From NCBI GenBank assembly GCA_020053615.1, contig JAGVMW010000114.1, positions 1-33,303 on the forward strand: a DNA stretch of 33,303 nt, written 5' to 3'. Positions 6,969 through 33,165 of this stretch are shown here, piece by piece. The translations under genes were made by a program, and so were the position numbers. A model generated the notes under the pieces. The model had not been told where the DNA came from, made no database searches, and saw only the letters and a program-made list of their open reading frames with translations. The stretch is from an archaeon. Its GTDB lineage: Archaea > Nanobdellota > Nanobdellia > Woesearchaeales > GW2011-AR9. Every line of letters begins with the position of its first letter. Position 1 is the first letter of the stretch.

Positions 6969-6981
6969 CTTTATTCTTCCA

Positions 6982-10038: not shown

Positions 10039-10041
10039 TCT

Positions 10042-10497: not shown

Positions 10498-10498
10498 A

Positions 10499-13663: not shown

Positions 13664-13711
13664 TTCACCCCACCTGATAAGAAATACTTGCACATACTTA
13701 TAAATATTACT

Positions 13712-13904
13712 GTTTTCTCGCCACTAACTACTGAATACTGAAACTCCCACCCTACCCACCCAAAGCGTCTTCTTTTTGTAAAAAGAAGCAAAAACAAAAC
13801 GGAATTCCCCCCTACGAACGACTAAACTAATGTCTGCTTCGCAGTAATTGATGTTAAAGTAAGTAAAAACTACGGCACCTATCTGATTTTCGGCAGTAAG
13901 AAAA
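13712..13904 (+). repeat. Leader-type (S2) repeat upstream of RHH-1/hsdM; the inverted partner of 3566-3800
   Basis: It contains GTTTTCTCGCC (13712-13722), ACGGAATTCCCCCC (13799-13812), TTAAAGTAAGTAAAAA (13854-13869) and GGCAGTAAGAAAA (13892-13904). In addition, 13799-13853 is near-identical to 32898-32953. Confidence 0.8.
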
Positions 13905-13934
13905 CTTCTCCGCTTTTTTTCTGCGGAAAAAAAT

Positions 13935-13984
13935 GCTCGACCCCGTTGCACTCTCGCTACGCTCGGGTCGGCTAACAGCGGAAG
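13935..13984 (+). repeat. Junction element J4, left half (GC-rich block plus CGGGTCGGCTAACAGCGGAAG), interrupted by the IS
   Basis: CCGTTGCACTCTCGCTACGCTCGGGTCGGCTAACAG aligns with J1, J3 and J9. The expected CATAY-GTTAWAY half is found only on the far side of the IS. Confidence 0.7.
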
Positions 13985-15541
13985 CCGTCCCGCAATCCCC
14001 TCCCAAAACACAATTTAAATCTTCATTCTTCTCAGAAAAAAATAAAATCCCTCATTTAACACTCCACTGCTCCTTTCATCCTCCAAATCTTCATTAAATT
14101 ATGAGCAATACAGGCCAAATTAAACTCAATCTTCACCTTTTCCTTGCCTCGAAGCAGGAATTCCCTGAATCCCAAGTTCTGCTTGATATTCCCATACACC
14201 GGCTCGACCGTAATTTTCCGCAAAGAATACACTTTCTTTGCTTCATCTGTTTTCATCTTGTCTCTCATCCTCAGCCGTTCACGGAAGTAGAACGGCACAT
14301 CTTTTTTCTTCCCTAATTTATCATTATAATAACTCAATATCTTCATGCCGTTTTTCCTCGTGTACTGAAACTTGAAGTAAAATCGATGTTTTCCGACGAT
14401 TAATTCATCTCTCTTGGCATCATACTCATACTGGTCGTGATTCAAACTTTGCTCCTTGCCGTCAAACTCTTGTGCTTGTGCACGAGAAGGCACATATAAA
14501 TCAATCTTATTTTCCTCCGCAAATTTAATGTTCCCCGCGTCACTATAACCGCAGTCAACTCCCACCTTTGTGTCATCTTTCAAAGTTATATTCTCTTTAA
14601 CATTCTTCATCTGCGGGATGAACTGGTGAACATCATGCTTGTCCTGGCAGATCTCATTGGCAATAATTATCTGATTCCTGTCGACAGTTAGCTGAGCATT
14701 GTAGCTCAGCTCGGAATGCCTTTTCTTGGTCTGCATGGCTCTGGCTTCAGGATCAGAAAGGGAGACTTTCTTCAACCCATACTTTTCCAGTTCATTTTTA
14801 GCTTGTTCAATATTCTTTTTGACCTTCTTCTTATCTTCTGCCTCATGGAATTCCCTAACTATTTTCTTAAGGTCTCTTTTGTCAATTCCAGTAAGCCCTT
14901 CTTCCCTATCGTCGAAGAGTTGGTCTTCCAGTTCATCCAGAGCTATATCTTCTTTGATCATCTTTTCGATAGCTTGGTCCAGTTTGTCCAACCCTTTCTT
15001 ATCCATATATCTCTTGCTACCAGCGTAGGCCTTTAAGGTTGTTCCATCGATGCTGATAAAGCTGAGGTCAGTAAGGTTGTGCCTGGCGGCGATTTCCACC
15101 GTTTTTTTGAATGCATCTTTGACAAATTCAGGATGTTCCATCCTGAAGCGGTTTATCGTCCTGAAATCTGGATGGACTTTCTCTGCCAGATACATGAAAA
15201 TAAAGTTTTCTCTGGTTGCCCTGGCCAATCTTCTGGAAGATCTGGTTTTGCAAAGCATCCCGTAAACCAAGATTTTCATGATAATTCTCGGGTGATAGGC
15301 AGGATGCCCTGCGCCTTCGTAGATCAAATCAAAGTCGGAGAAATCTAACTCATCAACATAGTTTTCCACTAGGAAACAGATGTGGTCTTTAGGAATGATT
15401 TCTGTTATCGACGGTGGCAGAAGCCAATTCTGGTCTTGGTAAGAATTTATGTATGCCATATTGCACCTCATTTTATTGATGATAAGATTATAACTTGTCG
15501 ACGGGAGAACTAGTATTTATATTTTGTGAATTATGGGACGG
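13985..15541 (-). mobile_element. IS element (IS1182/IS5-like) inserted into a junction element
   Basis: It encodes a single DDE transposase. The ends are imperfectly inverted: CCGTCCCGCAATCC...AAAACACAATTTAAAT at 13985 onward, and the reverse complement of 15500-15541 reads CCGTCCCATAATTC..AAAATATAAATAC. The boundaries could instead be 13992/15534 if CCGTCCC/GGGACGG belongs to the target hairpin. No clear target-site duplication was seen. Confidence 0.6.
14056..15471 (-). CDS. DDE transposase, IS1182/IS5 superfamily
   Basis: The N-terminal DUF772-type region reads HPAYHPRIIMKILVYGMLCKTRSSRRLARATRENFIFMYLA. The C-terminal region reads VEPVYGNIKQNLGFREFLLRGKEKVKIEFNLACIAHNLMKI. Confidence 0.85.
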   Translation of the reverse strand: MRCNMAYINSYQDQNWLLPPSITEIIPKDHICFLVENYVDELDFSDFDLIYEGAGHPAYHPRIIMKILVYGMLCKTRSSRRLARATRENFIFMYLAEKVHPDFRTINRFRMEHPEFVKDAFKKTVEIAARHNLTDLSFISIDGTTLKAYAGSKRYMDKKGLDKLDQAIEKMIKEDIALDELEDQLFDDREEGLTGIDKRDLKKIVREFHEAEDKKKVKKNIEQAKNELEKYGLKKVSLSDPEARAMQTKKRHSELSYNAQLTVDRNQIIIANEICQDKHDVHQFIPQMKNVKENITLKDDTKVGVDCGYSDAGNIKFAEENKIDLYVPSRAQAQEFDGKEQSLNHDQYEYDAKRDELIVGKHRFYFKFQYTRKNGMKILSYYNDKLGKKKDVPFYFRERLRMRDKMKTDEAKKVYSLRKITVEPVYGNIKQNLGFREFLLRGKEKVKIEFNLACIAHNLMKIWRMKGAVEC

Positions 15542-18098: not shown

Positions 18099-18950
18099 TC
18101 AATTCTCTTGTTTTGATTTCTTCTTTTCCAATCTTTTAACTGATTCAGCTTGCTCTACATAATTTTCAGAAGTAATAACTCTTCTGCCACTTTTTGTTTC
18201 CAAATCTCTTCTGGCTCTTCCGGCAACAGCTCCACCTTCTTGAGCAGCTTTTTTGCCCTCATCAAATCCCTCTACATTTTTATTCTTTGTAATTTCTGTT
18301 GTAGCTGCCTCACCAAGCATGGAAAAGATAAGCTCCAAGTCTGTCATGTGGTCGCGTAAATTTTCCCGTTTCAGTCCCTTTAACTCTTTGTACTCGGACG
18401 GCGTTAAACCAAAAGTCGCTTTGGATATTTCTGCGGTGAGAATTGCATATTCCCTTTCAGTCTTTATAGCTCGCTTATCCCATTCGCCGGTTAATTCATC
18501 CCTTATTGCTATCCCCCTTACCCTTCGCTCAATCCATTCATCAGAGTATCCTTTCTTTTTGTACAATTCCCTCATCCTTTTTTGAGCAAGCTCCGGGTTT
18601 TCTATCTCTTGTACTCGTTCATAGCCAACCTTTGCCAGCCATCTCTTAAATGGTTCTGCTTTCGGAGAGGGAATGGATTGAACAATCCTCAAGAGAGTTT
18701 CAGTATTGGCACAGTCCGTTTCATAAAACTTACCATCGGAAGACGGTAACTTCAGTTGTACGATTTTTTCGTACAACTCAAATCCTTCATCTTTGAGCTT
18801 AATTTTTAGATCAGACCAATATCTTCTAGGAATAGAGCTGCCAGTTAAGACTGTTACAATATCTATTATGGAGAAGAACCATTCTTCATTATGCCACAAT
18901 CTTCGTATGCCTTTTCCCTGAAAAACAATTAATGATGTTTCCGGATCCAT
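18099..18950 (-). CDS. Bro-N domain / DinD-like (DNA-damage-inducible protein D family) protein
   Basis: The N-terminal region reads FQGKGIRRLWHNEEWFFSIIDIVTVLTGS (Bro-N pattern). The C-terminal ENLRDHMTDLELIFSMLGEAATTEI resembles DinD. Confidence 0.65.
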   Translation of the reverse strand: MDPETSLIVFQGKGIRRLWHNEEWFFSIIDIVTVLTGSSIPRRYWSDLKIKLKDEGFELYEKIVQLKLPSSDGKFYETDCANTETLLRIVQSIPSPKAEPFKRWLAKVGYERVQEIENPELAQKRMRELYKKKGYSDEWIERRVRGIAIRDELTGEWDKRAIKTEREYAILTAEISKATFGLTPSEYKELKGLKRENLRDHMTDLELIFSMLGEAATTEITKNKNVEGFDEGKKAAQEGGAVAGRARRDLETKSGRRVITSENYVEQAESVKRLEKKKSKQEN

Positions 18951-19226
18951 TCTAATAGTTATTAAATAGACATTTCTTTAAATACTTTGTCCAAACCTGT
19001 CCAGTGACCAGTGGCTCTCTAAATGGAAACAACGGCTCTTAAATCCCCCTAACTTTTGTCTCTCTTCTCTCATATTCAAATAATCGAACTTTTGACGAAC
19101 TACGGTGGCACCTAAAGTCTCGGGAATGTTAAAACTTCTTCGGTTTAATGTCCTTCGGACTTAAACCTCGACCACGCTGCGCTTTCCCTACGATTTTTAT
19201 ATTCCCTTCGGTCATTAAAAATCTTC

Positions 19227-19395
19227 GGTCGGGTCGGCAAACAGGGGTTTACAGGAATTTTACTCGGCTCGTAAAATTCCCAAATGTCAATCCAGCTCTC
19301 AAAAATTTCTCAGCTCTGATTTTTGTGGGCTACCTCAAAAATCGAGGAGAAATTTTTGGAGGGATTGCCACTTCTGTAAACCCCATACGTTAAAC
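19227..19395 (+). repeat. Junction element copy A2: 166-nt structured repeat plus core CATAC-GTTAAAC
   Basis: It matches 118-283 except at 19325-19336. The closing base pair of the apical hairpin is swapped relative to copy A1 (G19325/C19336 versus C216/G227). A TTTTTATATT box at 19193-19202 lies about 25-30 nt upstream. Confidence 0.8.
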
Positions 19396-19399
19396 TCAA

Positions 19400-19434
19400 T
19401 AAAATTTCTGTTAGACTAAACTTAAGGGGTGCTT
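19400..19434. repeat. Left arm of the inverted repeat flanking the GIY-YIG/Mrr/Zn-ribbon block
   Basis: TAAAATTTCTGTTAG (19400-19414) and GGGGTGCTT (19426-19434) are exact reverse complements of 20913-20927 and 20900-20908. Confidence 0.85.
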
Positions 19435-21175: not shown

Positions 21176-21238
21176 GGGGGAGTTCTAAACTTTCTGACAA
21201 CTAACTTTGACGAGGGGGGAGTTCCGTGACGACGAGAA
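21176..21238 (+). repeat. S2-type block (GGGGGAGTTCTAAAC ... GGGGGGAGTTCCGTGACGACGAGAA) next to the 3' end of the large minus-strand block
   Basis: It resembles 3738-3800 (GGGGGGAATTCCGTAACGA...GCGAGAAAAC). It is also the inverse, with one mismatch, of ACGGAATTCCCCC at 32898-32910. Confidence 0.55.
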
Positions 21239-21257
21239 TAAGTGCTTTTCAGATTGA

Positions 21258-21509
21258 CTAAATGCTTCCTTGATGCACAAGAATTACAGCACCACCAGAT
21301 ACTATAGTTCTAAGATTTCCCACCTGACGCTGGAAGATTTCACTGCCATTAAAAAATGCAGCGTGTCCGTGAGGGCTACCAATATTTGGATAACCATAGA
21401 TTACATCAGTCCTTACACCACTAGCTGAACCACGATCATTCCAATTGAACCAACCGTCGTTTGTGCGAATACTATTATTTTGGTACATATCTGAACTCTT
21501 TATGAGCAT
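21258..21509 (-). CDS. Hypothetical 83-aa Gly/Asn-rich protein
   Basis: Its start overlaps the stop of the Cas4-like gene as TAATG. I recognise no motif. Confidence 0.4.
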   Translation of the reverse strand: MLIKSSDMYQNNSIRTNDGWFNWNDRGSASGVRTDVIYGYPNIGSPHGHAAFFNGSEIFQRQVGNLRTIVSGGAVILVHQGSI

Positions 21510-22183
21510 TACTTTTTAATTATTTCGCAAGAATTCTGAACCCATTCACAAAACCCACATTCTTCAGAGGGAGCGGGAATTTCAGCTTCTAAAACTTGAA
21601 CAACTTTCTTAAAAATATTCTCGGCGTTCTTGATATTAACTTTAATCTTGATTAAATCCTTATGGAAGTCTACATCACCATTCTCATGGACTTTGCTAGG
21701 ATGGTAAAATAATAGATAAGTATAATCCTCTGTCTCATAGCCATTCTTTCGTAAGAGAAAATTGTAGATATCCATCTGGTCTTGATAATGCTCGTGCGTA
21801 TCTTCTTTTAATGGGTAGCCTCTGGTTTTATAATCTAAAACAATCAGTTTCTTTCCCTTTTGGAGCAGATTATCAATAGCTCCATGAAAGAGATTACCTT
21901 TTTTATCAGTCCATGGTATTCCTTTGAAATTGCTTCTCCAAACTTTGAGGAGTTCTTCATTGTCAAAGAGCTTTACTTCACCTTTTAATTGTTGAAGTTC
22001 TGGAGGCAATTCTCCTCTTTTCATAAAGCGGTCAAAATGTTCTTTGAGAATTTTATCCATTCCACTCGGAAGAGATGGGAAAATGGAATCTGGACGTTTA
22101 ATGTTCTTGTTTAAAGCAAGCCAGAAACATCTAGGGCAATCTTTCAGTAAGCTTAGGCTTGATGGGCTGAATTTGTAGGTCAT
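21509..22183 (-). CDS. Cas4/RecB-like PD-(D/E)xK nuclease with a Cys cluster
   Basis: Motifs are GAIDNL, VLDYKT and QDQMDIY (QxxxY). Cysteines occur at CPRC (N-terminal) and CGFCEWVQNSC (C-terminal), as in Fe-S Cas4/AddB-type nucleases. Confidence 0.75.
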   Translation of the reverse strand: MTYKFSPSSLSLLKDCPRCFWLALNKNIKRPDSIFPSLPSGMDKILKEHFDRFMKRGELPPELQQLKGEVKLFDNEELLKVWRSNFKGIPWTDKKGNLFHGAIDNLLQKGKKLIVLDYKTRGYPLKEDTHEHYQDQMDIYNFLLRKNGYETEDYTYLLFYHPSKVHENGDVDFHKDLIKIKVNIKNAENIFKKVVQVLEAEIPAPSEECGFCEWVQNSCEIIKK

Positions 22184-22184
22184 T

Positions 22185-25100
22185 TTACGAAATAAAATCT
22201 AAAGTTATTAATCTTAATTTCTTCTCATCAAACTCGTCTAAGCCTTCTTTTTCATAAACCAGCTTATCCGAAACAAAATTAGTAACATCTACAATTAGTT
22301 TTTTCCAATTTTTATGTCCTTTTCTATAATTATTCCAAACTTTTCTAATAATTTGAATCCTCTTCTTAGTTAAACTAATGTTAACTAATTTCTTTCTAGT
22401 CTCTTCCCATTGTTTTTCTAATGCATTATCTTCCGGAAAATCTAAAATGTAATCCTCTATATCTCTCTCTATTTCGATAATTAATTGGCTCAGAAACTTT
22501 TTACTTCTTTCCTTACTCCAATCCTGTTGTTTTGTATCTGCTTCTTCCTTTACTCGTATTGAATTATATGTTTCTTTAATATCTTTAAGAATATTGGTGT
22601 TAATATCATATACTTCCTCGAAAAATTTAGGAATAACTCTTTTTTCGCTCTCTTTACAAGAAATAAATTGAAGTATTTCGGTTTTGTTCTTAATTGATTT
22701 TCTCGATTCTAAATCATGCAAATACCAGAAATGGAAATCTTCTCCATATTCATAATAAAAGAAAATTCCCCTAATACTTTTTTTAATCAAACCACTATGA
22801 ATCCCATCAGGCAGGTTTTCTAATTCTTTCATTGAACTTTTCTTGAGGTAAGTTTTCAATGGCTGATAAAAAACTTCTCCTCCACCAAATACGTCAGCTT
22901 CCAATTCATCTAAAACTGAAGATTCTTTATCTTTTATCCTCCTGATTACTCCAAAAACTTTAGGATGGATTTTTTCACCCAAAACAGTCTGATCTAATCC
23001 TACTGACTTATCTATATTGATTATTTTGTTTTGAAGAATGTTAACTAATTTTAATAATTCTTCTAATTCATCTTCTGGGAAGAAATTGTAAATATATATT
23101 TTATCATATAATGAGCCAATCCTGTCAATTCTACCTGCCCGCTGAATCATTCTTGTTGGATTCCAATGCAAATCATAATTTATTAAAATTTGTGCGGTCT
23201 GTAAGTTTTGTCCTTCTGATAATACATCAGTGCTTAGAAGAATGTCTATTTCTTTGTTTTTAAATCGTTCTATAATTTTTTGTCTGTCTTTTGGTGTAAA
23301 ACTGCCAGAACCAGAGATTTTTTGAAGCTTGATGTTTTTGAATTCTTTTTGTTTAGAAAGATAATCATAAACATAATCTAAAGTATCTTTGTAATAAGTA
23401 AAAACTACAATTTGGCTTTTTTCGTGTAATTTCAATAATTTATCTTTAAATTCAAGTAATTTTGCATCTTTATCAGGAGTTAAGTTCTTTATTTTTTCTA
23501 ATATACTCCCTAATAGTTGAATATCAATTTTAATGTCTTTAAACATCTCTTCTTTATTGTAATTATTTATGTTGAATTTATCTAATTGTGCTAGTATCTC
23601 CTGTTCAATTTCTTCTGAATCTTCCTCAAAGTCTTCATCTTCGGCAAGTATATATTTTATTAGTTTAGTATAAGCTTGTTTAGATAAGAATTTTCCTTCT
23701 TCTAAACAATTCATCATTGTCTTTAAGAACTTGATATGACGACTAACGCTAATCCTGAATGCCTCAATACTGCTTTCTAGTCTTTTTAGAAGAATTGTTT
23801 TGAAAATACCGCCTATGGCAATCATACGATTTAAAGCCAAGATTTCTTCTTGCGTTTGCAAATTTTCTTTTTTATATCTAAGAATATTATAATAAGCCAT
23901 AGTCAGCTTTTCGGATATTATGTCCGCAATTTCGCGATACATCCCTTGGTAAGTTTGATTCAGTTTGTAATTGATTGTTTCTAGCTTCCTATCTGGAAAT
24001 GTTATTTTCTGCCCATTAACTGTTGCATTAGGATACTCTTTTTTAATATAATCTCTGGTTCTTCTGATAGAAATTTCATTTAGTAAGTCGTTTAATAATG
24101 CAGGATTGCCTCTCTTATCAATTTCTTTAAAATGGACAAATAAATCAGGAATGTTCTCTTTTATGAATGTTGCATTATCATTTCCAACAAGAAGAAGAAT
24201 CTGTGAATACAAATCCCAAATAGAATTATTGATGGGTGTGGCAGTCATAAAGAGAATTTTAGGTTTTTCACCGTTTTCTTTTGTGATAAACTCAATTAAT
24301 GTGTTCATGTTCTCCCACCTGTTAGAGAGTTGATTTCTAAGATTATGGCTTTCATCAACAATTATTAATTCTACTTCTTCTAAATGCCCGCCAGTGGCAG
24401 TTTTTGCTTTATCTAAGAAGTCTTTAGAAGCTAAATTTTCTTGTGAAAGAATATTTTCAGTAAGTTGCTTATCTTTCAATGCGGGAAGCCACATTGTTTC
24501 CTTTAATTGTGCCGGACAGATAACTAAGCATCTCTTTCTTCTAAAAAAACCAAATTCTTCTAATACTTTAAGCGCAATATATGTTTTACCTAAACCAACC
24601 GAATCAGCAACCATGACTGCCCCATATTTTTTTAAACGTGAGAAGACTCTTTGAACAGCATCACTTTGAAATTCGGTTAATTCAACATTTGAAATACCAC
24701 TTTTGTCTTTCTTTTTTTCTTCTTCCTCTGATTCTGCGGCTATTTCATCTTTTTGCAGTTCATAAAGTGATTTTATATAAATTTGAAATGGAGTGTATTC
24801 TGTAGTTCCAAATCTTGAATTTTTGAGTAAAGTGATTAATTGCTCTTTAAATTCTAAAGATTCTTTCCAGAATTTATTGAACCAGTTTTCTCTACTATAT
24901 TCAACAAACATTTTACCCTGCTGAACAGTGTTATATTCTCCTTCTCTTGTAAGCCCAGCATAAGTAAAATTGGAAGAGCCACTAACCACTAATTTATCAA
25001 AAATATAAGTTTTTCCATGCAATAGGTTTTTGTCATAAATTCTGATTTCCACATTATGTTTTTCTAAAAAAGTAATTAAATCAGTAACATGGTCTTTCTT

Positions 25101-25391
25101 TTCTTTTGTAAGACCTAACTCTGCAATTTCTGTTTCTACTACTTTCAGCAGGGCTTTTCCTAAAGTCTGATTGTTATCCGTAAGTTCGGGGGATTTTCCA
25201 AGAAGCAAGCGAAATTTAGTAACTCCTTCTAATTTTTCTTTAACCAAAGCATACCCCTCCACGTTAAAGAATGCGGTAGCAATATCTAAATTAGTATTGG
25301 GATCTAAATGGAGAACTTTGTTTAGGAAAACAGACAGTTTTATGTTGTTGTTATCAACAATGTTTTCGTCAATCATCATTTGAATACCCAT
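22185..25391 (-). CDS. PLD-nuclease domain fused to an SNF2-family helicase
   Basis: The N-terminal LLHGKTYIFDKLVVSGSSN is an HxK..D..GSxN PLD motif. SNF2 motifs are GLGKT, IVDESHNLRN, TATPINN, LSEGQNLQ and QRAGRIDRIG. The likely start is the ATG at 25379, in an ATGA overlap with the upstream stop. Confidence 0.9.
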   Translation of the reverse strand: MGIQMMIDENIVDNNNIKLSVFLNKVLHLDPNTNLDIATAFFNVEGYALVKEKLEGVTKFRLLLGKSPELTDNNQTLGKALLKVVETEIAELGLTKEKKDHVTDLITFLEKHNVEIRIYDKNLLHGKTYIFDKLVVSGSSNFTYAGLTREGEYNTVQQGKMFVEYSRENWFNKFWKESLEFKEQLITLLKNSRFGTTEYTPFQIYIKSLYELQKDEIAAESEEEEKKKDKSGISNVELTEFQSDAVQRVFSRLKKYGAVMVADSVGLGKTYIALKVLEEFGFFRRKRCLVICPAQLKETMWLPALKDKQLTENILSQENLASKDFLDKAKTATGGHLEEVELIIVDESHNLRNQLSNRWENMNTLIEFITKENGEKPKILFMTATPINNSIWDLYSQILLLVGNDNATFIKENIPDLFVHFKEIDKRGNPALLNDLLNEISIRRTRDYIKKEYPNATVNGQKITFPDRKLETINYKLNQTYQGMYREIADIISEKLTMAYYNILRYKKENLQTQEEILALNRMIAIGGIFKTILLKRLESSIEAFRISVSRHIKFLKTMMNCLEEGKFLSKQAYTKLIKYILAEDEDFEEDSEEIEQEILAQLDKFNINNYNKEEMFKDIKIDIQLLGSILEKIKNLTPDKDAKLLEFKDKLLKLHEKSQIVVFTYYKDTLDYVYDYLSKQKEFKNIKLQKISGSGSFTPKDRQKIIERFKNKEIDILLSTDVLSEGQNLQTAQILINYDLHWNPTRMIQRAGRIDRIGSLYDKIYIYNFFPEDELEELLKLVNILQNKIINIDKSVGLDQTVLGEKIHPKVFGVIRRIKDKESSVLDELEADVFGGGEVFYQPLKTYLKKSSMKELENLPDGIHSGLIKKSIRGIFFYYEYGEDFHFWYLHDLESRKSIKNKTEILQFISCKESEKRVIPKFFEEVYDINTNILKDIKETYNSIRVKEEADTKQQDWSKERSKKFLSQLIIEIERDIEDYILDFPEDNALEKQWEETRKKLVNISLTKKRIQIIRKVWNNYRKGHKNWKKLIVDVTNFVSDKLVYEKEGLDEFDEKKLRLITLDFIS

Positions 25392-25882
25392 CCCTCTTTT
25401 CTAAACATTTCAATCAAGAATATGCATTCAATACCATATTCTTGGCATACATAAGGAACTTTAGTTTTTTTACCACTTATTCTTTCTTCTGAAACAACTA
25501 TTCTTTTTTTTATTGTTTCAATTAATGTTTTTTGAGCGTCTGCCTCCATCTCAATAGCAAGCGCAATAACAAAAGGATCTGCAATAGGAACCATACTATC
25601 TTCATTTAACCATTTAGGATATTTGGCTAATAATTCTTGAACAATTTGGATCTGTCTAGGTGTTAAATCTTTAAACAGCTTTGTCTGTTTTTTAGACCAT
25701 TCTTTCAGGTGGTCGTCTCCCCTTTCAATTTCTTTTAAAACTTCTTTTGGTGAAACTAAAAATCCACTTTCAATTAACGATTCTATTTTTTGCCAAACAG
25801 GAGGAAAAATATCTATGGGATACTTTCTATTTAACTCTATCAGTGAACATGAATCTATCACATAGTAATTTATGGATGTCAT
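25376..25882 (-). CDS. DUF4411 (PIN-like) protein
   Basis: YVIDSCSLIELNRKYPIDIFPPVWQKIESLIESGFLVSPKEVLKEIERGDDHLKEW matches the DUF4411 pattern. It has a 4-nt overlap with the upstream ImmA gene. Confidence 0.75.
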   Translation of the reverse strand: MTSINYYVIDSCSLIELNRKYPIDIFPPVWQKIESLIESGFLVSPKEVLKEIERGDDHLKEWSKKQTKLFKDLTPRQIQIVQELLAKYPKWLNEDSMVPIADPFVIALAIEMEADAQKTLIETIKKRIVVSEERISGKKTKVPYVCQEYGIECIFLIEMFRKEGWVFK

Positions 25883-27018
25883 TTGGAAGTCCTTTTTATT
25901 ACTTTTTCAAAATATTTGGTTTTTATTGATAGATAACTCAATGCATCGCTGTATGTGATAAATCCTTTATCCATGTTATCAGCAACCAAAGAAGGTAGTT
26001 TATGCCCTAATTCTGCAATGCATTTCTGGTCTTGAGTTCGCGGATCAACGATTTTGTGTTTTCCTTCAGCTTTAACGGGTATAGGTCTCTCCAGAATTGA
26101 TTTGTAGATTGATTGAGTAATAAAATTAAGATTAAACATATTATAAACAAGCATCGCTTTACTGACTTTGTATTTTCTTTTTAGTGTATTTAACGTATTT
26201 GTTTCTGTTAATGATTCTTTTTTCTGTGAAAATACTGAATTTGCCAATTCTGCTGGAAGTAAGAAATTTGACGCAAACAGGTTACACCATTTCTCAATCT
26301 TATCCTGTGTTTGAAATTCCGTTAAAGAGATTGCAGTCTCTCCAAGTAAAACATGCCCAAACTCGTGCATCAATGTAAATATTCTAGCTTCAATCTCATC
26401 CTGAGAGTTGGTCACTACAATTTTAGGATCTTTATCTGATAACGCAAAACCTCTTGCATCTTCTATGGGCATCGATATTTGAAATGAATAAATGTTTTTC
26501 TCTTCAAGCATTTCTCTTAAATAAGAATATACTTTGTAGGCATCTTTTAATTCAGTGGTTTGCTTTTCTACTGAAAAAAATAATAGTTCCCTATACTTAG
26601 TTGCTATCTGCTGCGGGTTATCCGTAATTTTATGTAATGTGATTTTAGGTTTCAAATCATTTTCAATATTTATGGCAAGCTCTTGGATGATTCCCTGTAA
26701 ATATCTTGCTTTTCTAATTGCCAAAATTGTCTTTTTGTTAAATTTTCCTTCTTTTCCTGGAAGCATACGGTAATCTTTTGGTTTTGGCTTCTCTTCAGGC
26801 GCTTTGGGCAGGAAGAATACAGCTAAAGGTCTTTTTAATTTATCTGCAAGAGCTTCTAATTGTTTTATGGTAATATTTCCTTTTAACCAATCTTTATATA
26901 TTGCTTCAGAAATATTTAGTTTTGAAATTAGTTCAGACTCATCCCAACCGGAAGTACTGATTGCCCATTTGATGACTTCAGGCTTTATTTGTATTTTTAC
27001 GGGTTTAGTTTTTGGCAT
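25879..27018 (-). CDS. XRE-type HTH fused to an ImmA/IrrE (M78, COG2856) metallopeptidase
   Basis: The zinc site HEFGH occurs in LMHEFGHVLL. The N-terminal HTH region reads ELISKLNISEAIYKDWLKG. Confidence 0.8.
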   Translation of the reverse strand: MPKTKPVKIQIKPEVIKWAISTSGWDESELISKLNISEAIYKDWLKGNITIKQLEALADKLKRPLAVFFLPKAPEEKPKPKDYRMLPGKEGKFNKKTILAIRKARYLQGIIQELAINIENDLKPKITLHKITDNPQQIATKYRELLFFSVEKQTTELKDAYKVYSYLREMLEEKNIYSFQISMPIEDARGFALSDKDPKIVVTNSQDEIEARIFTLMHEFGHVLLGETAISLTEFQTQDKIEKWCNLFASNFLLPAELANSVFSQKKESLTETNTLNTLKRKYKVSKAMLVYNMFNLNFITQSIYKSILERPIPVKAEGKHKIVDPRTQDQKCIAELGHKLPSLVADNMDKGFITYSDALSYLSIKTKYFEKVIKRTSK

Positions 27019-27075
27019 TTTGTACCTTGTAAATGTAATATTCTTTATGGTTATCTGTACTTTGTATATTAAAGT

Positions 27076-27570
27076 TTATATTGTTTTTCTTATCAAAGCG
27101 ATTAAGTAAGTATAAACCATATGTCCTGACTCAGCCACTTTTATCTTTAGTTCTTGTAACTTAGTTCTATCTGCAATTAAATCAATTTTAAATCTATTAT
27201 CTGACTTATTATTTATTCTTCTTAATTTTATTTCGATAATAACATAGGGATTATTAAAGCCATATCCTTTTGAGGGTAGAGGAAAATGCCCGCCCTTCTT
27301 TGTTATGAGTTGGGAGACATCAAAAATAACAATATCTGATCTGCACTTTAACTTTTTAGAGCGACCATACCACCTAACTTCACAATGCACCGGAATTGAT
27401 TGCTGATTATCTTCTGTTTGTTCCAAACCGTTAAAATCAGCAAGAAGTAAATGATAAAGATAGGCTCTAACATCTTCTTCAGTTAAGAATTTATCAGGAG
27501 TAGCTTTAAATTCATCTATTAAAGTATTAATCTTTTGTTCTACTTTTACTTTGATTTGTTGATTTTCCAT
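27076..27570 (-). CDS. Hypothetical protein with a PD-(D/E)xK nuclease-like motif
   Basis: HCEVR...RSDIVIFD...PYVIIEIKLRR fits E...D...ExK spacing. The call rests on the motif alone. Confidence 0.4.
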   Translation of the reverse strand: MENQQIKVKVEQKINTLIDEFKATPDKFLTEEDVRAYLYHLLLADFNGLEQTEDNQQSIPVHCEVRWYGRSKKLKCRSDIVIFDVSQLITKKGGHFPLPSKGYGFNNPYVIIEIKLRRINNKSDNRFKIDLIADRTKLQELKIKVAESGHMVYTYLIALIRKTI

Positions 27571-27572
27571 CT

Positions 27573-28112
27573 TTAACTCAATAGCCCAAAAAACAATGGT
27601 ACGTATTTTAGGGATATACCTGCCACTATTTTCAGTAGTTCAAGAGCATTTTCTCCGCTTTCTTTTAGGGTATTAAATTTTTCTAGTATATTAAATAAGC
27701 CCTTTTTCTTTTCTGAGTCTAATTCAGAGTCTTGCTCTATCATCTGTTTTAAAATGTAATGTTTTGAGTTGTTAATTACAATGGTATTACCGTCTCCTGC
27801 GGATTGAACTACATTCCCAATTGAAGAGTTTATTATCTGTTGAGATATGTTCTGGTCAATATCAACTAACGGTCTTTTGCCACAGGCGATTTCTAAACCT
27901 TTGGCAGTAACTTTATTCCAAATCATGCCTACAAGACCTCTTGCCAGAGTTTCTGTGTATTGAACCGCTCCAATTTCTTTAAGATATTCAAGAACATCAC
28001 ACACTTCTTCTTCATTAATCTTTAATTTTTCAGGAAGTTCTTCTACTTTGATTCTATCATCAGCTAATAATTTCAATACCGGTTCAGCTAAATGTATGGT
28101 TTTGGCATTCAT
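27573..28112 (-). CDS. Hypothetical protein with a possible N-terminal wHTH and a hydrophobic C-terminus
   Basis: EEVCDVLEYLKEIGAVQY is wHTH-like. The C-terminal IVAGISLKYVPLFFGLLS is hydrophobic. The gene is tightly packed in the operon, with 1-2 nt gaps. Confidence 0.45.
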   Translation of the reverse strand: MNAKTIHLAEPVLKLLADDRIKVEELPEKLKINEEEVCDVLEYLKEIGAVQYTETLARGLVGMIWNKVTAKGLEIACGKRPLVDIDQNISQQIINSSIGNVVQSAGDGNTIVINNSKHYILKQMIEQDSELDSEKKKGLFNILEKFNTLKESGENALELLKIVAGISLKYVPLFFGLLS

Positions 28113-28113
28113 T

Positions 28114-28938
28114 TTATTTTTTAAACAGTTCTCTTATATCTTTACTTCCAACTAGCTTTACGTTGTTAAAATGTTGGGGGTATTCTTCTCTAGTTAAAGT
28201 TATTAAATAATTAACCATGTACCATTTCAATCCATTATTCTCACTTTTCGCATTTGCTAAATGAATATAAGCATTTCTTGATTCCCTAATAATGTCTAAA
28301 CAATTATGTTTGTTAATATAACTATACTTTTTTAAGTATCTTTTGCCTTTTGTACCAACTAAAGCCGGAGTTTTATCGATTTTATATTTTTGAATAAAAG
28401 AAAGATAACCTTCCTTAAGAGATTTATTAGACGCATGGAATAGTTTAATACATTCATGAAATTTGAATGTTTCTGAGGAGAAATTTGAACTAATATCTTT
28501 CTTTGCATCATAATAAATCTTATTTAATTTGGATTGGGTTAATTGTGAGATTTTATTTAATTTATCCAATTTCATGGTGTATTTCTGAGAAAATTTGTTT
28601 GACAACATTTTGTTCAAACCAGTAAAAACACCATTTTTTCTGTCAAGCCCAACACACCTATCGGTTTTGTTTATAATGAAATTTCTTTTAAGTAAGATGA
28701 GTTTGACTAAGTGTTCTGCAGTTGAACCAATTAAATTCATTTTCTGAAGATGATAAGCTCTTGATTGGTAAAATTTCTGTTTTTGTCCTTGATTATAGGA
28801 AACAACTTTTTTATTTAACAAAATTTTGACTAATTTAAGATTTTCTTTGATTAAAGCTATATAAGTATCTACTACTATTGGTTGATATAAAAGTATATCA
28901 AATTTATCTTTCGAAATTTCCCATTGTTTTAGTTTCAT
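28114..28938 (-). CDS. Hypothetical helical protein with an RNxxxH motif, possibly HEPN (Abi_2/AbiD-F-like)
   Basis: IIRESRNAYIHLANA contains Rx4H in the RNxxxH form seen in several HEPN RNases. An upstream helix reads GSTAEHLVKLILLK. The call rests on the motif alone. Confidence 0.4.
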   Translation of the reverse strand: MKLKQWEISKDKFDILLYQPIVVDTYIALIKENLKLVKILLNKKVVSYNQGQKQKFYQSRAYHLQKMNLIGSTAEHLVKLILLKRNFIINKTDRCVGLDRKNGVFTGLNKMLSNKFSQKYTMKLDKLNKISQLTQSKLNKIYYDAKKDISSNFSSETFKFHECIKLFHASNKSLKEGYLSFIQKYKIDKTPALVGTKGKRYLKKYSYINKHNCLDIIRESRNAYIHLANAKSENNGLKWYMVNYLITLTREEYPQHFNNVKLVGSKDIRELFKK

Positions 28939-31900
28939 TTTTTCAAACTCGTCGCTTTGTTTAATCTTTGCTGTACTAACTCACAGACAGCCCAATATAC
29001 TTCTTTTCTTTCTTCTTTGGTTAATCCCAATTCATCAAAGATGATATTGTCAAGTTCTGCTCGGTCTGGAAGAGGCTTTGGCTCTTGTTCACGGATGGGT
29101 TTGGTGGGGTCGATGCCGAGTTCTTCAAATATTGATTTTACTTCTCTTGTAAAAAATTTATTAATATTATATTTTGAAAAATTCAATTTTTGGAGCGATA
29201 CCATTGGGATTTTATTAGCATCCATTGTAGCTAAATCCAGAGCACCCTGACCTAAATTTGAACGTCCATAAATTTCAATAAATAAAGCAGTAAATGTAGA
29301 GTTAAGAAGTAATGAAAAGTACTTTGGATTTACTTCTTTTTTTAGTTTTATCATGTGAAAGCGACGGTCACTTAATGCTTTCTTTTCCGAATATGGATGA
29401 ATAAACCGGTCATTATACCCATATAACATAAAGCAATTTGTGAACTCAACATTAGAAATAGACCACCAGCCCGGTTTTCTATTTACTACGGTTGGAACTT
29501 CTGGCCATGGGATTCCTGCTTTGACTTTACCTTTCTCTTTTGTCTCTTGTCTCTCTCCCCATTCTATATACTTTAAAGCATTGTTATGGTCCTTTGATTT
29601 CAGCGAGTTCTTAGATTCATTACAAATAAAAACAAATTTTTTGTTGATATATTTATTTAAACTAATGCACTTAACATCCTGAGGAGATTTAATCAATGGG
29701 ATAAGATAATCAGTCTCAATTTTCCATTTTTTTACTTGTTCTTCGTTCAAATAAAAGAAATCATTTATCCCGCTGTAAAGTCCCGTATCCACTTTACCGT
29801 ATAATTCTTTTAATACTCCAACATCCTTCTTACTGAGTATACTAAAAACTATGTCTGGAGAACGCAAGAACTTACTCCCCCACTTATTTCCTTCATAACT
29901 CCCTTTGCCAAACCTTCCATTTTCATACCCTTCTGGATATTCCCAACCATCTTCCAGCAAATCTTCCTGATTAATGGGATAAACCCTAAACTCATTTGTT
30001 TTCAGTATCTTCTCTGCTTTCTCAATCTTAACCAGATTAGCCGCATTAACCACTTCCTCAAATGGCTTCTTGAACATCACAAAGCGAGCAGTTTGACTAA
30101 ATCCAGAATATGTCGCTTTTCCATTGCCATTATACTCAGCGCCATACTCAAATAATGATTTTTGCTTGCCAATTACCGGCGCACCCAAAAGTGCAATAAT
30201 TGTATTTACATCAGCATGCTCAAAGCTTCGTTTGGCTTGATTGTCATAAATTCCAATAACGTGCGAATATCTTAACAAAAACTCCTGCAACCCCTTCCCA
30301 TAACCCACATCCAGCCAAGAATTAGAGGTAATAAAACAAAACACTCCACCAGAATTAAGCAAACTCAATCCGTGAAAGTAAAAATAGACATACAAATCGC
30401 TTTTCTTATCCCAATCAATAACGACAGGAAACCTATTTTGAACGGATTTAATCAATTTCTCTTTATATCCTCGTCTATCTTCAAGTGTAACCTCTTCTTT
30501 AAGCTTATTTGGCGGAGCAATCTTCTCCTGCCGCACATACGGCGGATTGCCAATCACAATATCAAACCCGCCTTCATCTGCAAATACTTCCGCAAAATCA
30601 ATATCCCAAACAAATGGTTTCTTGGCAGGATCTTTCAATAACTCTTTTACTTTCTTTAATTTCTCAATTTCATCAGCACATTCTTTTATCCGGTTTTCAA
30701 GCTCAATTAAATTCTTCTTCTCTTTTTTGATATTCTCCGCATCAATATTAACTGAAGCGCCAAATAAGCCCGTTTGCTTCTCTTTCTTACTTGAAGAATG
30801 GGTTAAGACTTGAATATCAGTCTCTAATGATTCTATCCGTTCATTCAAAATCTCTTCAAATAATCTAACCTCTTGCACTTTAAACTCTTCTGGAGTCTTA
30901 TATTTTGCTGAGGGAGAATTTTCAAAATATCTTCTTTTCTCATTTTTCAACTCTTCCAGTTTTTTCTTTAAATGCGGCTTCAGATTATTGCTTCGCACAT
31001 TAAAGCTGATTCCACCAATTTCCTGCACTAATGAATCACCAACACGCAGATTCATGTTTAAATTTGGTAATAACGGATGTTTCCTTAATTCTTCATCTTT
31101 AAATTGTGTTTCCACAATCAACTGAAGCCATAATCTTAATTCTGAGGCATGAATTGCCCAGGGCATGACATCTACCCCATATAGAGAACGTTGGATTATC
31201 CTATACTTTAATTGGAAGTCGCTTAAGCTAGAACCAATATGCTTAAACACAATTTTATACAATTCTACCAAGACATTAAGCATCCCTACTAAAAATGCCC
31301 CCGAACCACAGGCAGGATCAACAATAGAAAGATTATCCAACGCTTCCTCTATTTTACCCCAGCATTTACGCTGATTGAACTTCTTCTCAATTTTCTCTTT
31401 ATCTTCATCAAATACAAACTCGTATAATTCCTCTTTAGGTATCTCTAAATTCTTTCCTAGATACTCTACTAAAGACCTTCGACACATAAAATCTACTTCT
31501 ACTTTAGCAGTATAGAATATACCCCAATCCCCACGCAAATCTTCTTCATTTTCATAAACATCCTCTGTAATATTAGCCAGAGACTCATAAACATAACCAA
31601 TCATTTGAGGATCAACGGAGACTTCTACATCTAATACAGAATCTTCTTTGATGGTAAAATTGTAGCTTTCGAAGAAGTCAAATATCTCTTTAAAGAGATT
31701 ATCAGATATGTTTATCTTTAAGTCGTCTAACCCTATTTTTTTAGTAAATAAGCCGCCATTAAGATAGGGACTATTTGACAATATTTTATTTACTTCCTCG
31801 GGAAGTTCAGGATGATAACTGGATTTATTATTAAAAGCCTCAAAGAACAGAGGTTTTAACCATTTATCATAAAATTCATTATTTCCATATTTACTAATTC

Positions 31901-32672
31901 GTTTATATAAATCCCAATATGCCTGCATAAATTTTCTATCTTTATTCAGCCATTCTTTCTTAGCTATAAAATAAATGAACATAATTCTATTCATAAATTG
32001 TAATGTAAATTCATGGGCTATTTTCGGGTCTACCTTCTGTTTTTTGAGTTCTTTTCTCACCACTAAAAATAGTCTTTGATAATCCTCAAAAAATTTCTTA
32101 GTAACTTTCTGAACATCAAACGCCTCTTTCCATAACCGCCAGAGTTCTCGCCATGTTTTCTTTTGGTCTTCCAGAAATATATTGCAAATTATCTCAATAT
32201 CTGTATAATAAAGCTCATCTTTTTTCAATATTAATGTGGTTGTTTTAAGTTTATGTTTTCCTACCTCCTGCTTTTCGTAATCTGGAAACACAATATGTAT
32301 CTCTTTATAATCGATTGTAATAATTAAGAGACATCGCGTGTACATTTCAGCGAATTTGTTTGCGATATATCGCATAAGAGGCTTACTAAGAGAGTTAGTT
32401 TCAATTAAGAAGACATTGAGTTTATCATAACTCATAACTGTGTAAATTGTTTTAATTTTGTCTCGTTCTTCACTGGCAAAAGAAAATTCTTTTATCTTTT
32501 TAACATAAGATGAATCAAAAATTGCTTCTTTTGGATAATTTAGACTCTTAAACAAACCATATATATCCTCTGAATTCTTTATGAAAGAGATATAATCTTT
32601 AACTTTCTTTCGGAGATCTGAATTATTATTCACTTTTCCCGCCCCCTCTTCTCTAACTCTGCTTCCATGCAT
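28935..32672 (-). CDS. Large N6-adenine DNA methyltransferase, Eco57I/type IIG- or PglX-like
   Basis: Motif I is IVDPACGSGAFLVGML and motif IV is VIGNPPYV, with a coiled-coil insert between them and a long C-terminal region. I could not identify a clear N-terminal nuclease motif. The more likely start is the GTG at 32633, in a GTGA overlap with the RHH-2 stop, rather than the ATG at 32672. Confidence 0.8.
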   Translation of the reverse strand: MHGSRVREEGAGKVNNNSDLRKKVKDYISFIKNSEDIYGLFKSLNYPKEAIFDSSYVKKIKEFSFASEERDKIKTIYTVMSYDKLNVFLIETNSLSKPLMRYIANKFAEMYTRCLLIITIDYKEIHIVFPDYEKQEVGKHKLKTTTLILKKDELYYTDIEIICNIFLEDQKKTWRELWRLWKEAFDVQKVTKKFFEDYQRLFLVVRKELKKQKVDPKIAHEFTLQFMNRIMFIYFIAKKEWLNKDRKFMQAYWDLYKRISKYGNNEFYDKWLKPLFFEAFNNKSSYHPELPEEVNKILSNSPYLNGGLFTKKIGLDDLKINISDNLFKEIFDFFESYNFTIKEDSVLDVEVSVDPQMIGYVYESLANITEDVYENEEDLRGDWGIFYTAKVEVDFMCRRSLVEYLGKNLEIPKEELYEFVFDEDKEKIEKKFNQRKCWGKIEEALDNLSIVDPACGSGAFLVGMLNVLVELYKIVFKHIGSSLSDFQLKYRIIQRSLYGVDVMPWAIHASELRLWLQLIVETQFKDEELRKHPLLPNLNMNLRVGDSLVQEIGGISFNVRSNNLKPHLKKKLEELKNEKRRYFENSPSAKYKTPEEFKVQEVRLFEEILNERIESLETDIQVLTHSSSKKEKQTGLFGASVNIDAENIKKEKKNLIELENRIKECADEIEKLKKVKELLKDPAKKPFVWDIDFAEVFADEGGFDIVIGNPPYVRQEKIAPPNKLKEEVTLEDRRGYKEKLIKSVQNRFPVVIDWDKKSDLYVYFYFHGLSLLNSGGVFCFITSNSWLDVGYGKGLQEFLLRYSHVIGIYDNQAKRSFEHADVNTIIALLGAPVIGKQKSLFEYGAEYNGNGKATYSGFSQTARFVMFKKPFEEVVNAANLVKIEKAEKILKTNEFRVYPINQEDLLEDGWEYPEGYENGRFGKGSYEGNKWGSKFLRSPDIVFSILSKKDVGVLKELYGKVDTGLYSGINDFFYLNEEQVKKWKIETDYLIPLIKSPQDVKCISLNKYINKKFVFICNESKNSLKSKDHNNALKYIEWGERQETKEKGKVKAGIPWPEVPTVVNRKPGWWSISNVEFTNCFMLYGYNDRFIHPYSEKKALSDRRFHMIKLKKEVNPKYFSLLLNSTFTALFIEIYGRSNLGQGALDLATMDANKIPMVSLQKLNFSKYNINKFFTREVKSIFEELGIDPTKPIREQEPKPLPDRAELDNIIFDELGLTKEERKEVYWAVCELVQQRLNKATSLKK

Positions 32673-32779
32673 TTCTCAAACTGACGAGAAACTATCCAGC
32701 CTTCTTTTTTGCATAACTCCCTATAGGTATCATACAATTTTGAATTAACTTTCAAAGTGATATTCTTACTCTCTTCCAT
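32630..32779 (-). CDS. Ribbon-helix-helix small protein RHH-2, a paralog of 13511-13663; not in the supplied ORF track
   Basis: My manual translation gives [49 protein letters not shown]. In my alignment 40 of 44 core residues are identical to RHH-1. The gene is preceded by GAGGGAATGA. Confidence 0.7.
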   Translation of the reverse strand: MEESKNITLKVNSKLYDTYRELCKKEGWIVSRQFEKCMEAELEKRGREK

Positions 32780-32849
32780 TATCATTCCCTCTAACTAGAT
32801 TAATAATAAATAACTGCACATACTTATAAAGATTACTATGCTGAAACTC

Positions 32850-32953
32850 TTCTCGCCCCCAACGACTTAAACTGAACTCCCTACTAACAACAAAACTACG
32901 GAATTCCCCCACGACGAACGACTAAAATAATGTCTGCTTCGCAGTAATTGATT
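32850..32953 (+). repeat. Leader-type (S2) repeat upstream of RHH-2 and the methyltransferase
   Basis: TTCTCGCCCCC (32850-32860) and ACGGAATTCCCCC...CGAACGACTAAAATAATGTCTGCTTCGCAGTAATTGAT (32898-32953) are near-identical to 13799-13853. Confidence 0.8.
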
Positions 32954-33060
32954 GATGATTCATTAAAAAACTACGGTAGCCCCTAACTCGCTCAGAAACA
33001 AAGTTTCTGGCGTGCAAGAAAAATCGCTGTTTTTCTTCGCATCTCAGCGCTGAAAAAACT

Positions 33061-33165
33061 CTGCGCACTGCGGTGCTTGCCCCGCTGCGCTCTCACTCCA
33101 TTTTTATGTCCTGCGGGACTAAAAATTCCGTTCGGGTCGAGAAACAGCGCACGCATATGTTATAT
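33061..33165 (+). repeat. Junction element J9 (GC-rich block, CGGGTCGAGAAACAGCG, core CATAT-GTTATAT)
   Basis: GCGCTCTCACTCCATTTTTATGTCCTGCGGGACTAAAAATTCCGTTCGGGTCGAG aligns with 19176-19236. The core lies at 33154-33165. Confidence 0.7.

Follow-up and report, generated by a model that had tools for sequence, protein, structure and literature searches.

The window analysed here, 33,303 nucleotides (nt) of contig JAGVMW010000114.1 from a Woesearchaeales archaeon, holds two small genes on its minus strand, RHH-1 and RHH-2, whose products resemble ribbon-helix-helix (RHH) proteins. Each stands at the head of a different restriction-modification (R-M) operon. The original prediction had taken the two open reading frames (ORFs) for paralogous heads of methyltransferase operons with a common promoter region; both are real, and what was said of their sequences holds. 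Closely similar heads, consisting of a promoter and an RHH gene, are joined to many kinds of defence operon in DPANN archaea. Do they represent a portable regulatory unit? The features that bear most directly on this question are:

32630 to 32779, minus strand: RHH-2 gene, 49 amino acids (aa); homologues start at MEESK
13511 to 13663, minus strand: RHH-1 gene, 50 aa, identical to RHH-2 at 40/45 residues
32808 to 32831, minus strand: RHH-2 promoter and putative operator core, (C)TTTATAAGTATGTGCAGTTATTT, comprising the TATA box and a conserved stretch up to the expected transcription start
13682 to 13705, minus strand: RHH-1 promoter and putative operator core, ATTTATAAGTATGTGCAAGTATTT
32630 to 32650, minus strand: RHH-2/methyltransferase junction, AGAGGGGGCGGGAAAAGTGA, where the GTG start (32633-32631) overlaps the TGA stop
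13511 to 13537, minus strand: RHH-1/hsdM junction, AGAGGGGGCGAGAAAATGTCAAATAA, with the hsdM ATG (13521-13519) 11 nt inside RHH-1
11998 to 13521, minus strand: hsdM, 507 aa, first gene of a Type I operon (operon 1)
28935 to 32633, minus strand: Type IIG-like N6-adenine methyltransferase of the Eco57I/MmeI family, 1232 aa, first gene of operon 2

The BLASTP alignment of RHH-1 with RHH-2 (E = 3e-30) agrees with the 40 of 44 identities counted earlier over a 44-residue core, and the beta-strand sequence KNITLKV is the same in both. The likely RHH-2 start is the ATG at 32779, another ATG at 32785 being too near the Shine-Dalgarno (SD) sequence. The gene was expected to be missed by default annotation, which is incorrect, as it is already called publicly (P0001 at NCBI, P0123 at JGI). 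The two genes represent different sub-types, each found in many genomes: a short-leader form (RHH-1), with about 51 nt from the TATA box to the strand codons and an MKTK or MTTK N-terminus, and a long-leader form (RHH-2), with 64-68 nt and an MEESK N-terminus.

Both genes run into the gene that follows. RHH-1 (stop codon at 13513-13511) overlaps the start of hsdM by 11 nt, and the RHH-2 stop forms GTGA with the methyltransferase GTG, a 4-nt overlap. These overlaps are as originally described; the enzyme length then given, 1245 aa, is not. The longer version is an artefact because its ATG (32672) sits inside the conserved RHH codons K-C-M-E. GTG is also the start at homologous junctions (L023, L024, L027, L037 and L046, where L numbers designate loci), and in L046 it begins the conserved PLD-SNF2 N-terminus. 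The SD sequence of the methyltransferase lies inside the last RHH-2 codons, and the two junctions have the same SD box and spacing (GAGGGGG followed by 7-8 nt). Start codons of downstream enzymes need correction, as here from 1245 aa to 1232 aa.

A database search returned 213 close homologues with identities of 73-100% and lengths of about 50-60 aa; among those with a named source, nearly all are from Woesearchaeota or Nanoarchaeota. The species-representative genome collection contains 48 loci, almost all in metagenome-assembled genomes (MAGs) labelled as DPANN. The few loci with other labels (Methanosarcinales, Gottesmanbacteria, Bacillota, Promethearchaeota, Parvarchaeota) are possible binning errors. 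With an exhaustive profile search 192 clusters (50% identity) were obtained, and small proteins make up almost all of them. A viral origin was rejected, there being only one weak relative in 2.9 million viral contigs.

The protein sequence hardly varies among 43-45 distinct DNA copies, although all synonymous codons are used. For 45 copies the mean proportion of synonymous differences (pS) is 0.785, i.e. saturated, the mean proportion of nonsynonymous differences (pN) is 0.124 and the ratio of the nonsynonymous to the synonymous rate (dN/dS) is about 0.07. The RHH gene is real and strongly constrained at the protein level; a constraint on DNA or RNA as the cause of its conservation is ruled out, as synonymous codons vary freely. 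Frameshifts accumulating in relatives had been named as evidence that would speak against the idea of a shared controller, but decayed copies number only two (L065 and L066). At L020 (5006-6156) a head promoter with two mismatches drives an unrelated ORF (MNSNIKDTF...) that sits between the promoter and the RHH gene, and hsdM, further downstream, is broken; the locus illustrates how a module may decay or be rearranged.

The family has the sequence pattern of an RHH protein: a K-N-I-T-L-K-V strand, helix A, an EGW turn (EGW-IVSRQ) and helix B, an arrangement that agrees with the RHH topology of ~45 aa. The best match is the Pfam family RepB-RCR_reg (PF10723), with E = 0.007-0.011 and 16-17 bits, the gathering cut-off being 21. 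Twenty-six of 28 family members match this same family of the RHH clan, weakly (best E = 1.6e-4), and there are matches to RHH_5 in two members and to Arc in one. Profile searches of the PDB gave Arc (E = 0.016) and the RHH domain of ParG (E = 0.56), and NCBIfam gave weak RepA and YbfE matches. These weak matches converge on RHH families, every one of them sub-threshold; the Pfam search gave no match of the RHH proteins to a helix-turn-helix (HTH) family. In the AlphaFold2 monomer the N-terminus is extended and helices span residues 13-26 and 32-48; the mean predicted local distance difference test score (pLDDT) is 76. At about 49 aa in total the protein has no space for an extra domain and ends a few residues past helix B. 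Pattern and model together suggest that the family probably consists of minimal RHH-like proteins of about 45-50 aa, with one beta strand and two helices.

Linkage to defence operons

Comparisons were made on 48 distinct modules for junctions, 39 modules for box counts and 40 distinct promoters anchored on ATTTATAAGTATGTGCAnnTATTT. The RHH stop overlaps the next start in 41 of the 48 modules, by 4 nt in 19, 8 nt in 10 and 11 nt in 12. Six of the other seven abut the next start within about a base, and in L052 there is a gap of about a dozen nt. Wherever the next gene could be classified, it belongs to restriction, modification or a related form of DNA defence. The classes are HsdM, HsdR, PLD-SNF2 followed by an Eco57I-type methylase, Type IIG/MmeI-like enzymes, SNF2 helicases, Type III Mod with Res, C5 and N6/N4 methylases, the Type IV enzymes GmrSD and Mrr, and PD-(D/E)XK, RhuM, ParB_N and MazG-like proteins. 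A near-invariant RHH protein is thus paired with more than 12 unrelated downstream families, and some modules have a Type IV enzyme (GmrSD, Mrr) as cargo and no methylase.

The notion of a portable regulatory head, raised in the original prediction, is strongly borne out by these 48 distinct DPANN modules, which cover Type I, IIG, II (C5), III and IV systems and related defence genes. A search for homologues upstream of methyltransferases in other genomes had been proposed as the check, and the linkage is indeed conserved elsewhere. It is not specific to methyltransferases, however: R subunits come next in about a third of the modules and M subunits in another third or so, so that a restriction subunit, PLD-SNF2 or other, is first about as often.

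How freely are heads and cargo combined? Both leader types pair with the same cargo classes (HsdM, PLD-SNF2 and others), and the first cargo codons vary with the type of junction, MSNN, MNN, VNN, MSSD or MSDN being found ahead of the same conserved cargo N-terminus. One locus, L021, is a chimera with an RHH-2-type 5' half and an RHH-1-type 'ENVK' junction and hsdM. The mixing of leaders and cargo, together with this chimera, therefore indicates that the head is a module that has become attached to different cargo on repeated occasions. In this conserved head, many different defence operons also have a stretch of homology in common. The head can be present in more than one copy: the window has two, and three MAGs have two loci each. 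In 19 of the 48 loci a contig end lies within 900 nt of the RHH gene, which suggests assembly breaks at a repeat.

A head region without an RHH gene is found upstream of a BRO-N gene (18099-18950). The sequence at 18951-19100 (minus strand) carries a third copy of the upstream repeat and a diverged head promoter, ATTTAAAGAAATGTCTATTTAAT; this is either a degenerate head or an RHH-less relative.

Promoter core and flanking boxes

The 23-nt TATA-box region TTTATAAGTATGTGCAnnTATTT precedes both RHH genes, at 13682-13704 and 32808-32830, and is present nowhere else in the window, where 0.02 chance matches are expected; the promoter region proposed to be shared is confirmed. Part of it, read as the reverse complement, gives the plus-strand string CACATACTTATAAA. 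The two operator regions agree at every specified position of the 23-nt motif.

Conservation extends across the 40 promoters. The core ATTTATAAGTATGTGCAnnTATTT has a mean pairwise identity of 84%, and its flanks 30-46%. Within it the TATA segment ATTTATAA reaches 94%, GTATGTGCA 79% and TATTT 95%, and the two 'nn' positions fall to 36%. Because synonymous sites of the adjacent gene are saturated while the core is conserved, this non-coding sequence is under selection. The motif is also specific: 42 of its 48 distinct matches in 570 kb of DPANN sequence precede an RHH gene, by which a generic strong promoter is ruled out. The TATA box is also the centre of a 14-bp dyad, ATATTTA|TAAGTAT, whose symmetry in the 40 promoters is 81%; a second, weaker one has TGCA at its centre. 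The usual site of action of archaeal repressors is the TATA box or the sequence immediately past it. Given where the transcription start is predicted, the conserved stretch would fill the interval between TATA box and start.

Palindromes near the TATA box and GGAATTCC had been offered as candidate operators. The search for a conserved operator led to the TATA-proximal core, and GGAATTCC was rejected, as it occurs in only 7 of 39 modules and its conserved form, GGGGGAGTTC, is not palindromic. The general box GGGGG(A/G)(A/G)TTC is present in 16 of the 39 and the GGGGCGAGAA box in 19, at 18-19 or 27 nt upstream of the TATA box; both are facultative elements. The GGGGCGAGAA decamer recurs at the 3' ends of the RHH genes (32636-32645 and 13523-13532). 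The boxes in the window are:

32850 to 32859, minus strand: GGGGCGAGAA box, 27 nt upstream of the ATTTATAA-type TATA box of RHH-2
13715 to 13724, minus strand: GTGGCGAGAA box, 19 nt upstream of the RHH-1 TATA box
32899 to 32969, minus strand: RHH-2 upstream boxes, GGGGGAATTCCG (32899-32910) and a GCGAAGC mini-hairpin (repeat family D3)
13800 to 13869, minus strand: RHH-1 upstream boxes, GGGGGAATTCCG (13800-13811), a GCGAAGC mini-hairpin and TTTTTACTTACTTTAA (13854-13869) (repeat family D3)
3716 to 3797, plus strand: inverted box copy at the far end of operon 1, with TTTTTACTTACTTTAA, GGGGGAATTCCG and GGGGCGAGAA, ending 3 nt from the hsdR stop
21176 to 21240, plus strand: far end of operon 2, with inverted GGGGGAGTTC boxes (21176, 21215) and a GACGAGAATAAG box

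Both operons are thereby bracketed by inverted GGGGG(A/G)(A/G)TTC and GGGGCGAGAA boxes, the latter innermost and abutting the last stop codon. The brackets are at 3739/3788 (+) and 13800/13715 (-) for operon 1 and at 21176/21215 (+) and 32899/32850 (-) for operon 2, and the same right-end arrangement of boxes is seen in L033, L034, L068, L061 and L023. In form they resemble the terminal inverted repeats or iterons of a cassette. Some loci have the G5-AGTTC box three times, at intervals of about 50 nt.

Autoregulator or another role

What might the RHH protein do? Several small RHH proteins, CopG, Arc, Mnt and omega among them, bind operators and repress their own genes. The reading preferred here, with a probability of about 0.62, is that the protein is a minimal RHH autoregulator and forms, with its promoter and operator, a portable head of DPANN defence operons. 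The putative head module would consist of an archaeal TATA promoter with the operator-like core ATTTATAAGTATGTGCAnnTATTT, a short SD-led leader and the RHH gene, whose last codons carry the SD sequence of the next gene and whose stop overlaps the next start, so that translation of the two would be coupled. RHH dimers, or dimers of dimers, may occupy the conserved sequence that includes the TATA box and continues past it, blocking TBP, TFB or RNA polymerase and repressing the module's own promoter. The coupled restriction, modification or defence genes would then be kept at a low level independent of copy number, with a burst of expression when a cassette enters a cell without the repressor. 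Co-resident modules, such as the two in the window, would be cross-regulated as one defence regulon. This cross-regulation, which the original prediction had suggested, is plausible for RHH-1 and RHH-2 because the presumed DNA-reading strand, KNITLKV, and the operators hardly differ from copy to copy. That the RHH protein binds the core, that it represses rather than activates and that one copy acts on the promoter of another are all inferred from sequence.

Several points weigh against such an autoregulator. The matches to curated RHH families are all below gathering thresholds (16.7 bits vs 21). The N-terminal strand is disordered in the monomer model, as expected for an obligate dimer, yet this provides no positive evidence, and a Foldseek comparison of the 49-residue monomer model with the PDB gave no matches, the model being too small. 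The core could be the site of another factor, or a very strong promoter co-inherited with the gene, and its symmetry is partly intrinsic to an AT-rich TATA box. The transcription start should lie about 24-28 nt past the TATA box, a position taken from typical archaeal spacing only. The GGGGCGAGAA box, which is also at the RHH 3' end, is not explained by autoregulation beyond an SD or coding role.

Among the known systems closest to the head are the CopG/RepB-RCR_reg copy-control repressors. These are likewise minimal, single-domain RHH proteins of about 45-50 aa (CopG, 45 aa), and CopG-type repressors are encoded by the first gene of a two-gene operon, where they dose the downstream protein from an operator overlapping the core promoter; the RHH head may be likened to them in this. 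The differences are that the cargo consists of defence enzymes, with no rep gene downstream in any locus, that the RHH module is chromosomal in DPANN archaea, that the Pfam score is 16.7 vs 21 bits and that the operator sequence is unrelated. The omega protein of inc18 plasmids (copy number, partition and the epsilon-zeta toxin-antitoxin (TA) system) also offers an example of one small RHH protein uniting several promoters with the same repeats into a single regulon. It is, however, encoded once and acts in trans on heptad arrays, whereas each RHH operon carries its own regulator and operator, and no heptad arrays of the omega type were identified in the RHH modules. A conserved regulator and regulatory sequence serving as a handle beside variable, defence-related cargo is seen with Aca and acr genes and with the WYL regulators BrxR/CapW of BREX and CBASS, and such a handle is of use as bait where genes are sought through guilt by association (PMC11065993, PMC13551039). 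These differ from the RHH module in fold and sensing logic, as WYL proteins have ligand-sensing domains and the RHH protein has none; the RHH module is also largely restricted to DPANN archaea and always translationally coupled to the first cargo gene.

A wider view of the autoregulator can be drawn, although it must be regarded as speculative and rather improbable. The RHH head might be the common control and recombination handle of DPANN-specific, exchangeable defence cassettes, each with promoter, RHH gene and cargo, bounded by inverted GGGGGAGTTC and GGGGCGAGAA boxes, separated by hairpin repeats of one orientation, integron- or transposon-like, and joined, within a cell, in one regulon under a near-invariant 49-aa repressor. 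If so, episymbiotic archaea could switch their whole restriction arsenal up or down together.

Could the RHH protein instead be a true analogue of the R-M controller (C) proteins? It would then be a concentration-dependent activator and later a repressor, delaying or gating restriction relative to methylation in a new host. C proteins (C.PvuII, C.AhdI, C.Esp1396I) are also small DNA-binding proteins encoded at the head of R-M operons, their genes often overlap the next one, and they are presumed to act on their own promoters. The RHH genes are probably co-transcribed and translationally coupled with the R-M operons that they head, and the GGGGCGAGAA box, which precedes the TATA box at a fixed distance, could serve as an activator-type site. 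Where one cell has identical regulators cross-talk is implied, and the incompatibility-like effects of shared operators would parallel C-protein exclusion groups (PMC3874152). However, there is one promoter for the whole operon, so no differential timing of M and R can come from it. Many modules put the restriction subunit first (RHH, PLD-SNF2, methylase), and some hold only a Type IV enzyme. The upstream box is missing in about half of the modules, and no tandem operator pair like the C-box was found in them. Further, C proteins are of the Xre-type HTH fold, whereas the fold here is RHH-like; the host is an archaeon with a TATA/BRE promoter; and one near-invariant RHH protein with its operator serves Type I, II, IIG, III and IV systems as well as non-R-M defence genes. 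The defining feature of C proteins is the C-box operator, through which activation followed by repression delays restriction; what is found here is a conserved TATA-proximal core and a facultative upstream box. A C-protein role is unlikely. Because of these RHH-R-M gene orders we argue for simple negative feedback rather than a biphasic timing switch.

Slightly less likely again is a role in mobility, in which the RHH protein would mainly be an accessory DNA-binding protein serving a defence cassette that moves or recombines (cf. TraY, omega or a recombination directionality factor), and the head and repeats would be recombination sites rather than regulatory DNA. The inverted boxes that bracket both operons, with the same right-end arrangement at five other loci, fit this, as do the mosaic heads and the hairpin-rich repeats, all in one orientation, between gene blocks of the island. 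Integron-like arrays, often with R-M and TA cassettes, have been described from archaea, Nanoarchaeota among them (PMC9668308). The promoter core and RHH gene, on the other hand, are universal, and the flanking boxes are limited to 16-19 of 39 modules; no recombinase or transposase is consistently adjacent; and the RHH gene is always the first cistron, coupled to its cargo, which is typical of regulators rather than of mobility factors.

The RHH antitoxins ParD, CcdA and RelB neutralize by protein-protein contact. An RHH protein that neutralized the downstream enzyme in this way would make the operon an addiction module, and the gene order is that of type II TA systems, with a small RHH gene first that overlaps the next. 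R-M systems can themselves act as addiction modules (PMC3874152). Yet the protein has only the 45-aa DNA-binding core, without the C-terminal, toxin-binding extension of ParD/CcdA/RelB-like antitoxins, and the downstream genes encode large enzymes rather than small toxins. As one near-invariant RHH protein meets more than 12 unrelated families, harmless methyltransferases included, a specific protein-protein interface is implausible, and an antitoxin role is very improbable.

A recent segmental duplication or gene conversion inside the island, without function, can be set aside: DNA repeats D2, D3 and D9 do connect both RHH regions, but RHH-1 and RHH-2 have diverged strongly at synonymous sites (pS 0.62, dS about 1.3; pN only 0.048), each has closer relatives in other genomes (L025, L026 and L028 for RHH-1, L021 for RHH-2) and the module is spread over 48 loci, so that the two are anciently diverged lineages of a widespread module and not, as had been proposed, a duplication within the island.

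Has such a head been described before? Text searches of the literature yielded no account, in DPANN archaea or outside them, of R-M or defence operons headed by an RHH regulator, and PADLOC has no model covering the RHH. A 2013 review of R-M regulation mentions RHH proteins only as TA regulators (PMC3874152). The head, with an ultra-conserved mini-repressor and operator apparently reused as a plug-in across system types, would represent a new regulatory solution for R-M. To our knowledge, what is understood about the regulation of R-M and defence systems comes mostly from HTH C proteins and WYL regulators of bacteria, with almost nothing from archaea and nothing from DPANN. The module provides a simple bait for new DPANN defence genes, as any gene after a head is a candidate, and the regulon is directly testable with a 49-aa protein and a 24-bp site. 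A shared head may also help to explain the reshuffling of defence islands in reduced DPANN genomes.

Repeats and neighbouring genes of the island

A hairpin-rich intergenic repeat divides the gene blocks of the island, and every copy detected in the window is on the minus strand, whatever the direction of the neighbouring gene. The copies are:

13865 to 13985, minus strand: copy of the repeat family
32966 to 33152, minus strand: copy of the repeat family
19096 to 19250, minus strand: copy of the repeat family
842 to 923, minus strand: copy of the repeat family
94 to 139, minus strand: copy of the repeat family
3507 to 3550, minus strand: copy of the repeat family

Elsewhere the family is found in L011, L015 (two copies), L020, L025, L029, L031, L038, L042, L044 and L064. 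Its conserved blocks are CTGTTnnCCGACCCG, GAGAGYGCARCGKGG and CCGTAGTTTT, and between them are hairpins whose stems vary in sequence and are closed by C-GNA-G loops, the GCGAAGC mini-hairpin among them. Rfam and tRNA scans of the window and of both upstream regions revealed no known RNA. The upstream 'AB' repeat as a globally structured non-coding RNA is unsupported (fold z +0.8 to -1.9; weak RNAalifold consensus). The core repeat has an unexceptional fold, and only local hairpins and one long palindrome stand out structurally in the repeats.

The palindrome is part of a 174-nt direct repeat (118-291 and 19227-19400, in the minus-strand reading), whose copies are 94% identical and diverge immediately outside. 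It forms a very stable imperfect palindrome of about 140-170 nt (DNA fold -43.5 kcal/mol, z = -9.7), followed by TGTTTGCC, and lies between TAACGTAT and TGTTTGCCGACCCGACC; the contig begins inside one copy. By its form it looks like an attC-like or other recombination site. The island repeats recall, by analogy, integron cassette arrays; the conserved region exceeds the 7-nt core of integron attC sites, and no IntI integrase gene is present among the window genes.

A gene for an IS1182-like DDE transposase (DUF772 with DDE_Tnp_1_6; 14056-15471, minus strand) adjoins the repeat region upstream of RHH-1. A close relative in an unrelated MAG (L034, 3992-5410, plus strand) adjoins the right-end boxes of an RHH cassette, and this insertion sequence family may target these repeats.

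The island also displays a period of about 19.1 kb, the start-to-start spacings being 19109 for D1, 19113 for D2, 19100 for D3 and 19126 for D9. Palindromic repeat, RHH gene, upstream boxes and promoter all return at nearly this interval, and the genes in between are unrelated. Coincidence or a size constraint might account for this periodicity.

The genes of both operons are tightly packed. Those that follow the first gene are:

3801 to 11989, minus strand: rest of operon 1 (Type I), in order SLFN/AlbA_2-ATPase, integrase-SAM-like ORF, YhcG/DUF1016 nuclease, 121-aa ORF, hsdS, 118-aa ORF and hsdR
21258 to 28938, minus strand: rest of operon 2, in order ORFs of 274, 179 and 164 aa, M78 peptidase (RmrA-like), DUF4411, PLD-SNF2 helicase-nuclease (1068 aa), Cas4-like PD-(D/E)XK nuclease and an 83-aa ORF

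The remainder of the window is a defence island with AbiE-like genes, an MNT-HEPN pair, GIY-YIG, Mrr, BRO-N and the insertion sequence transposase. The PLD-SNF2 protein (about 1070 aa) and the Eco57I-type methyltransferase (about 1200 aa) form a recurrent two-gene unit that is found in either order (window, 21258-32633, minus strand; L011-L018), and the top PADLOC match of the pair is the candidate system C3a139, 'HKD+Snf2'. In the window this unit holds inserted genes: the M78 peptidase/DUF4411 pair, three unknown ORFs and the Cas4-like nuclease.

Within the Type I operon, perfect 27-nt direct repeats, ACTTCCCAATCTTCAGGAATCATTCCT, at 8542-8568 and 10030-10056 bound a 1.46-kb segment with the YhcG/DUF1016 nuclease gene and the 121-aa ORF. 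The segment looks like the scar of an accessory-gene insertion between hsdM and hsdS. In the same operon, the SLFN/AlbA_2 ATPase gene contains three tandem 12-nt units (TTATCGGCTCAC) at 10714-10760.

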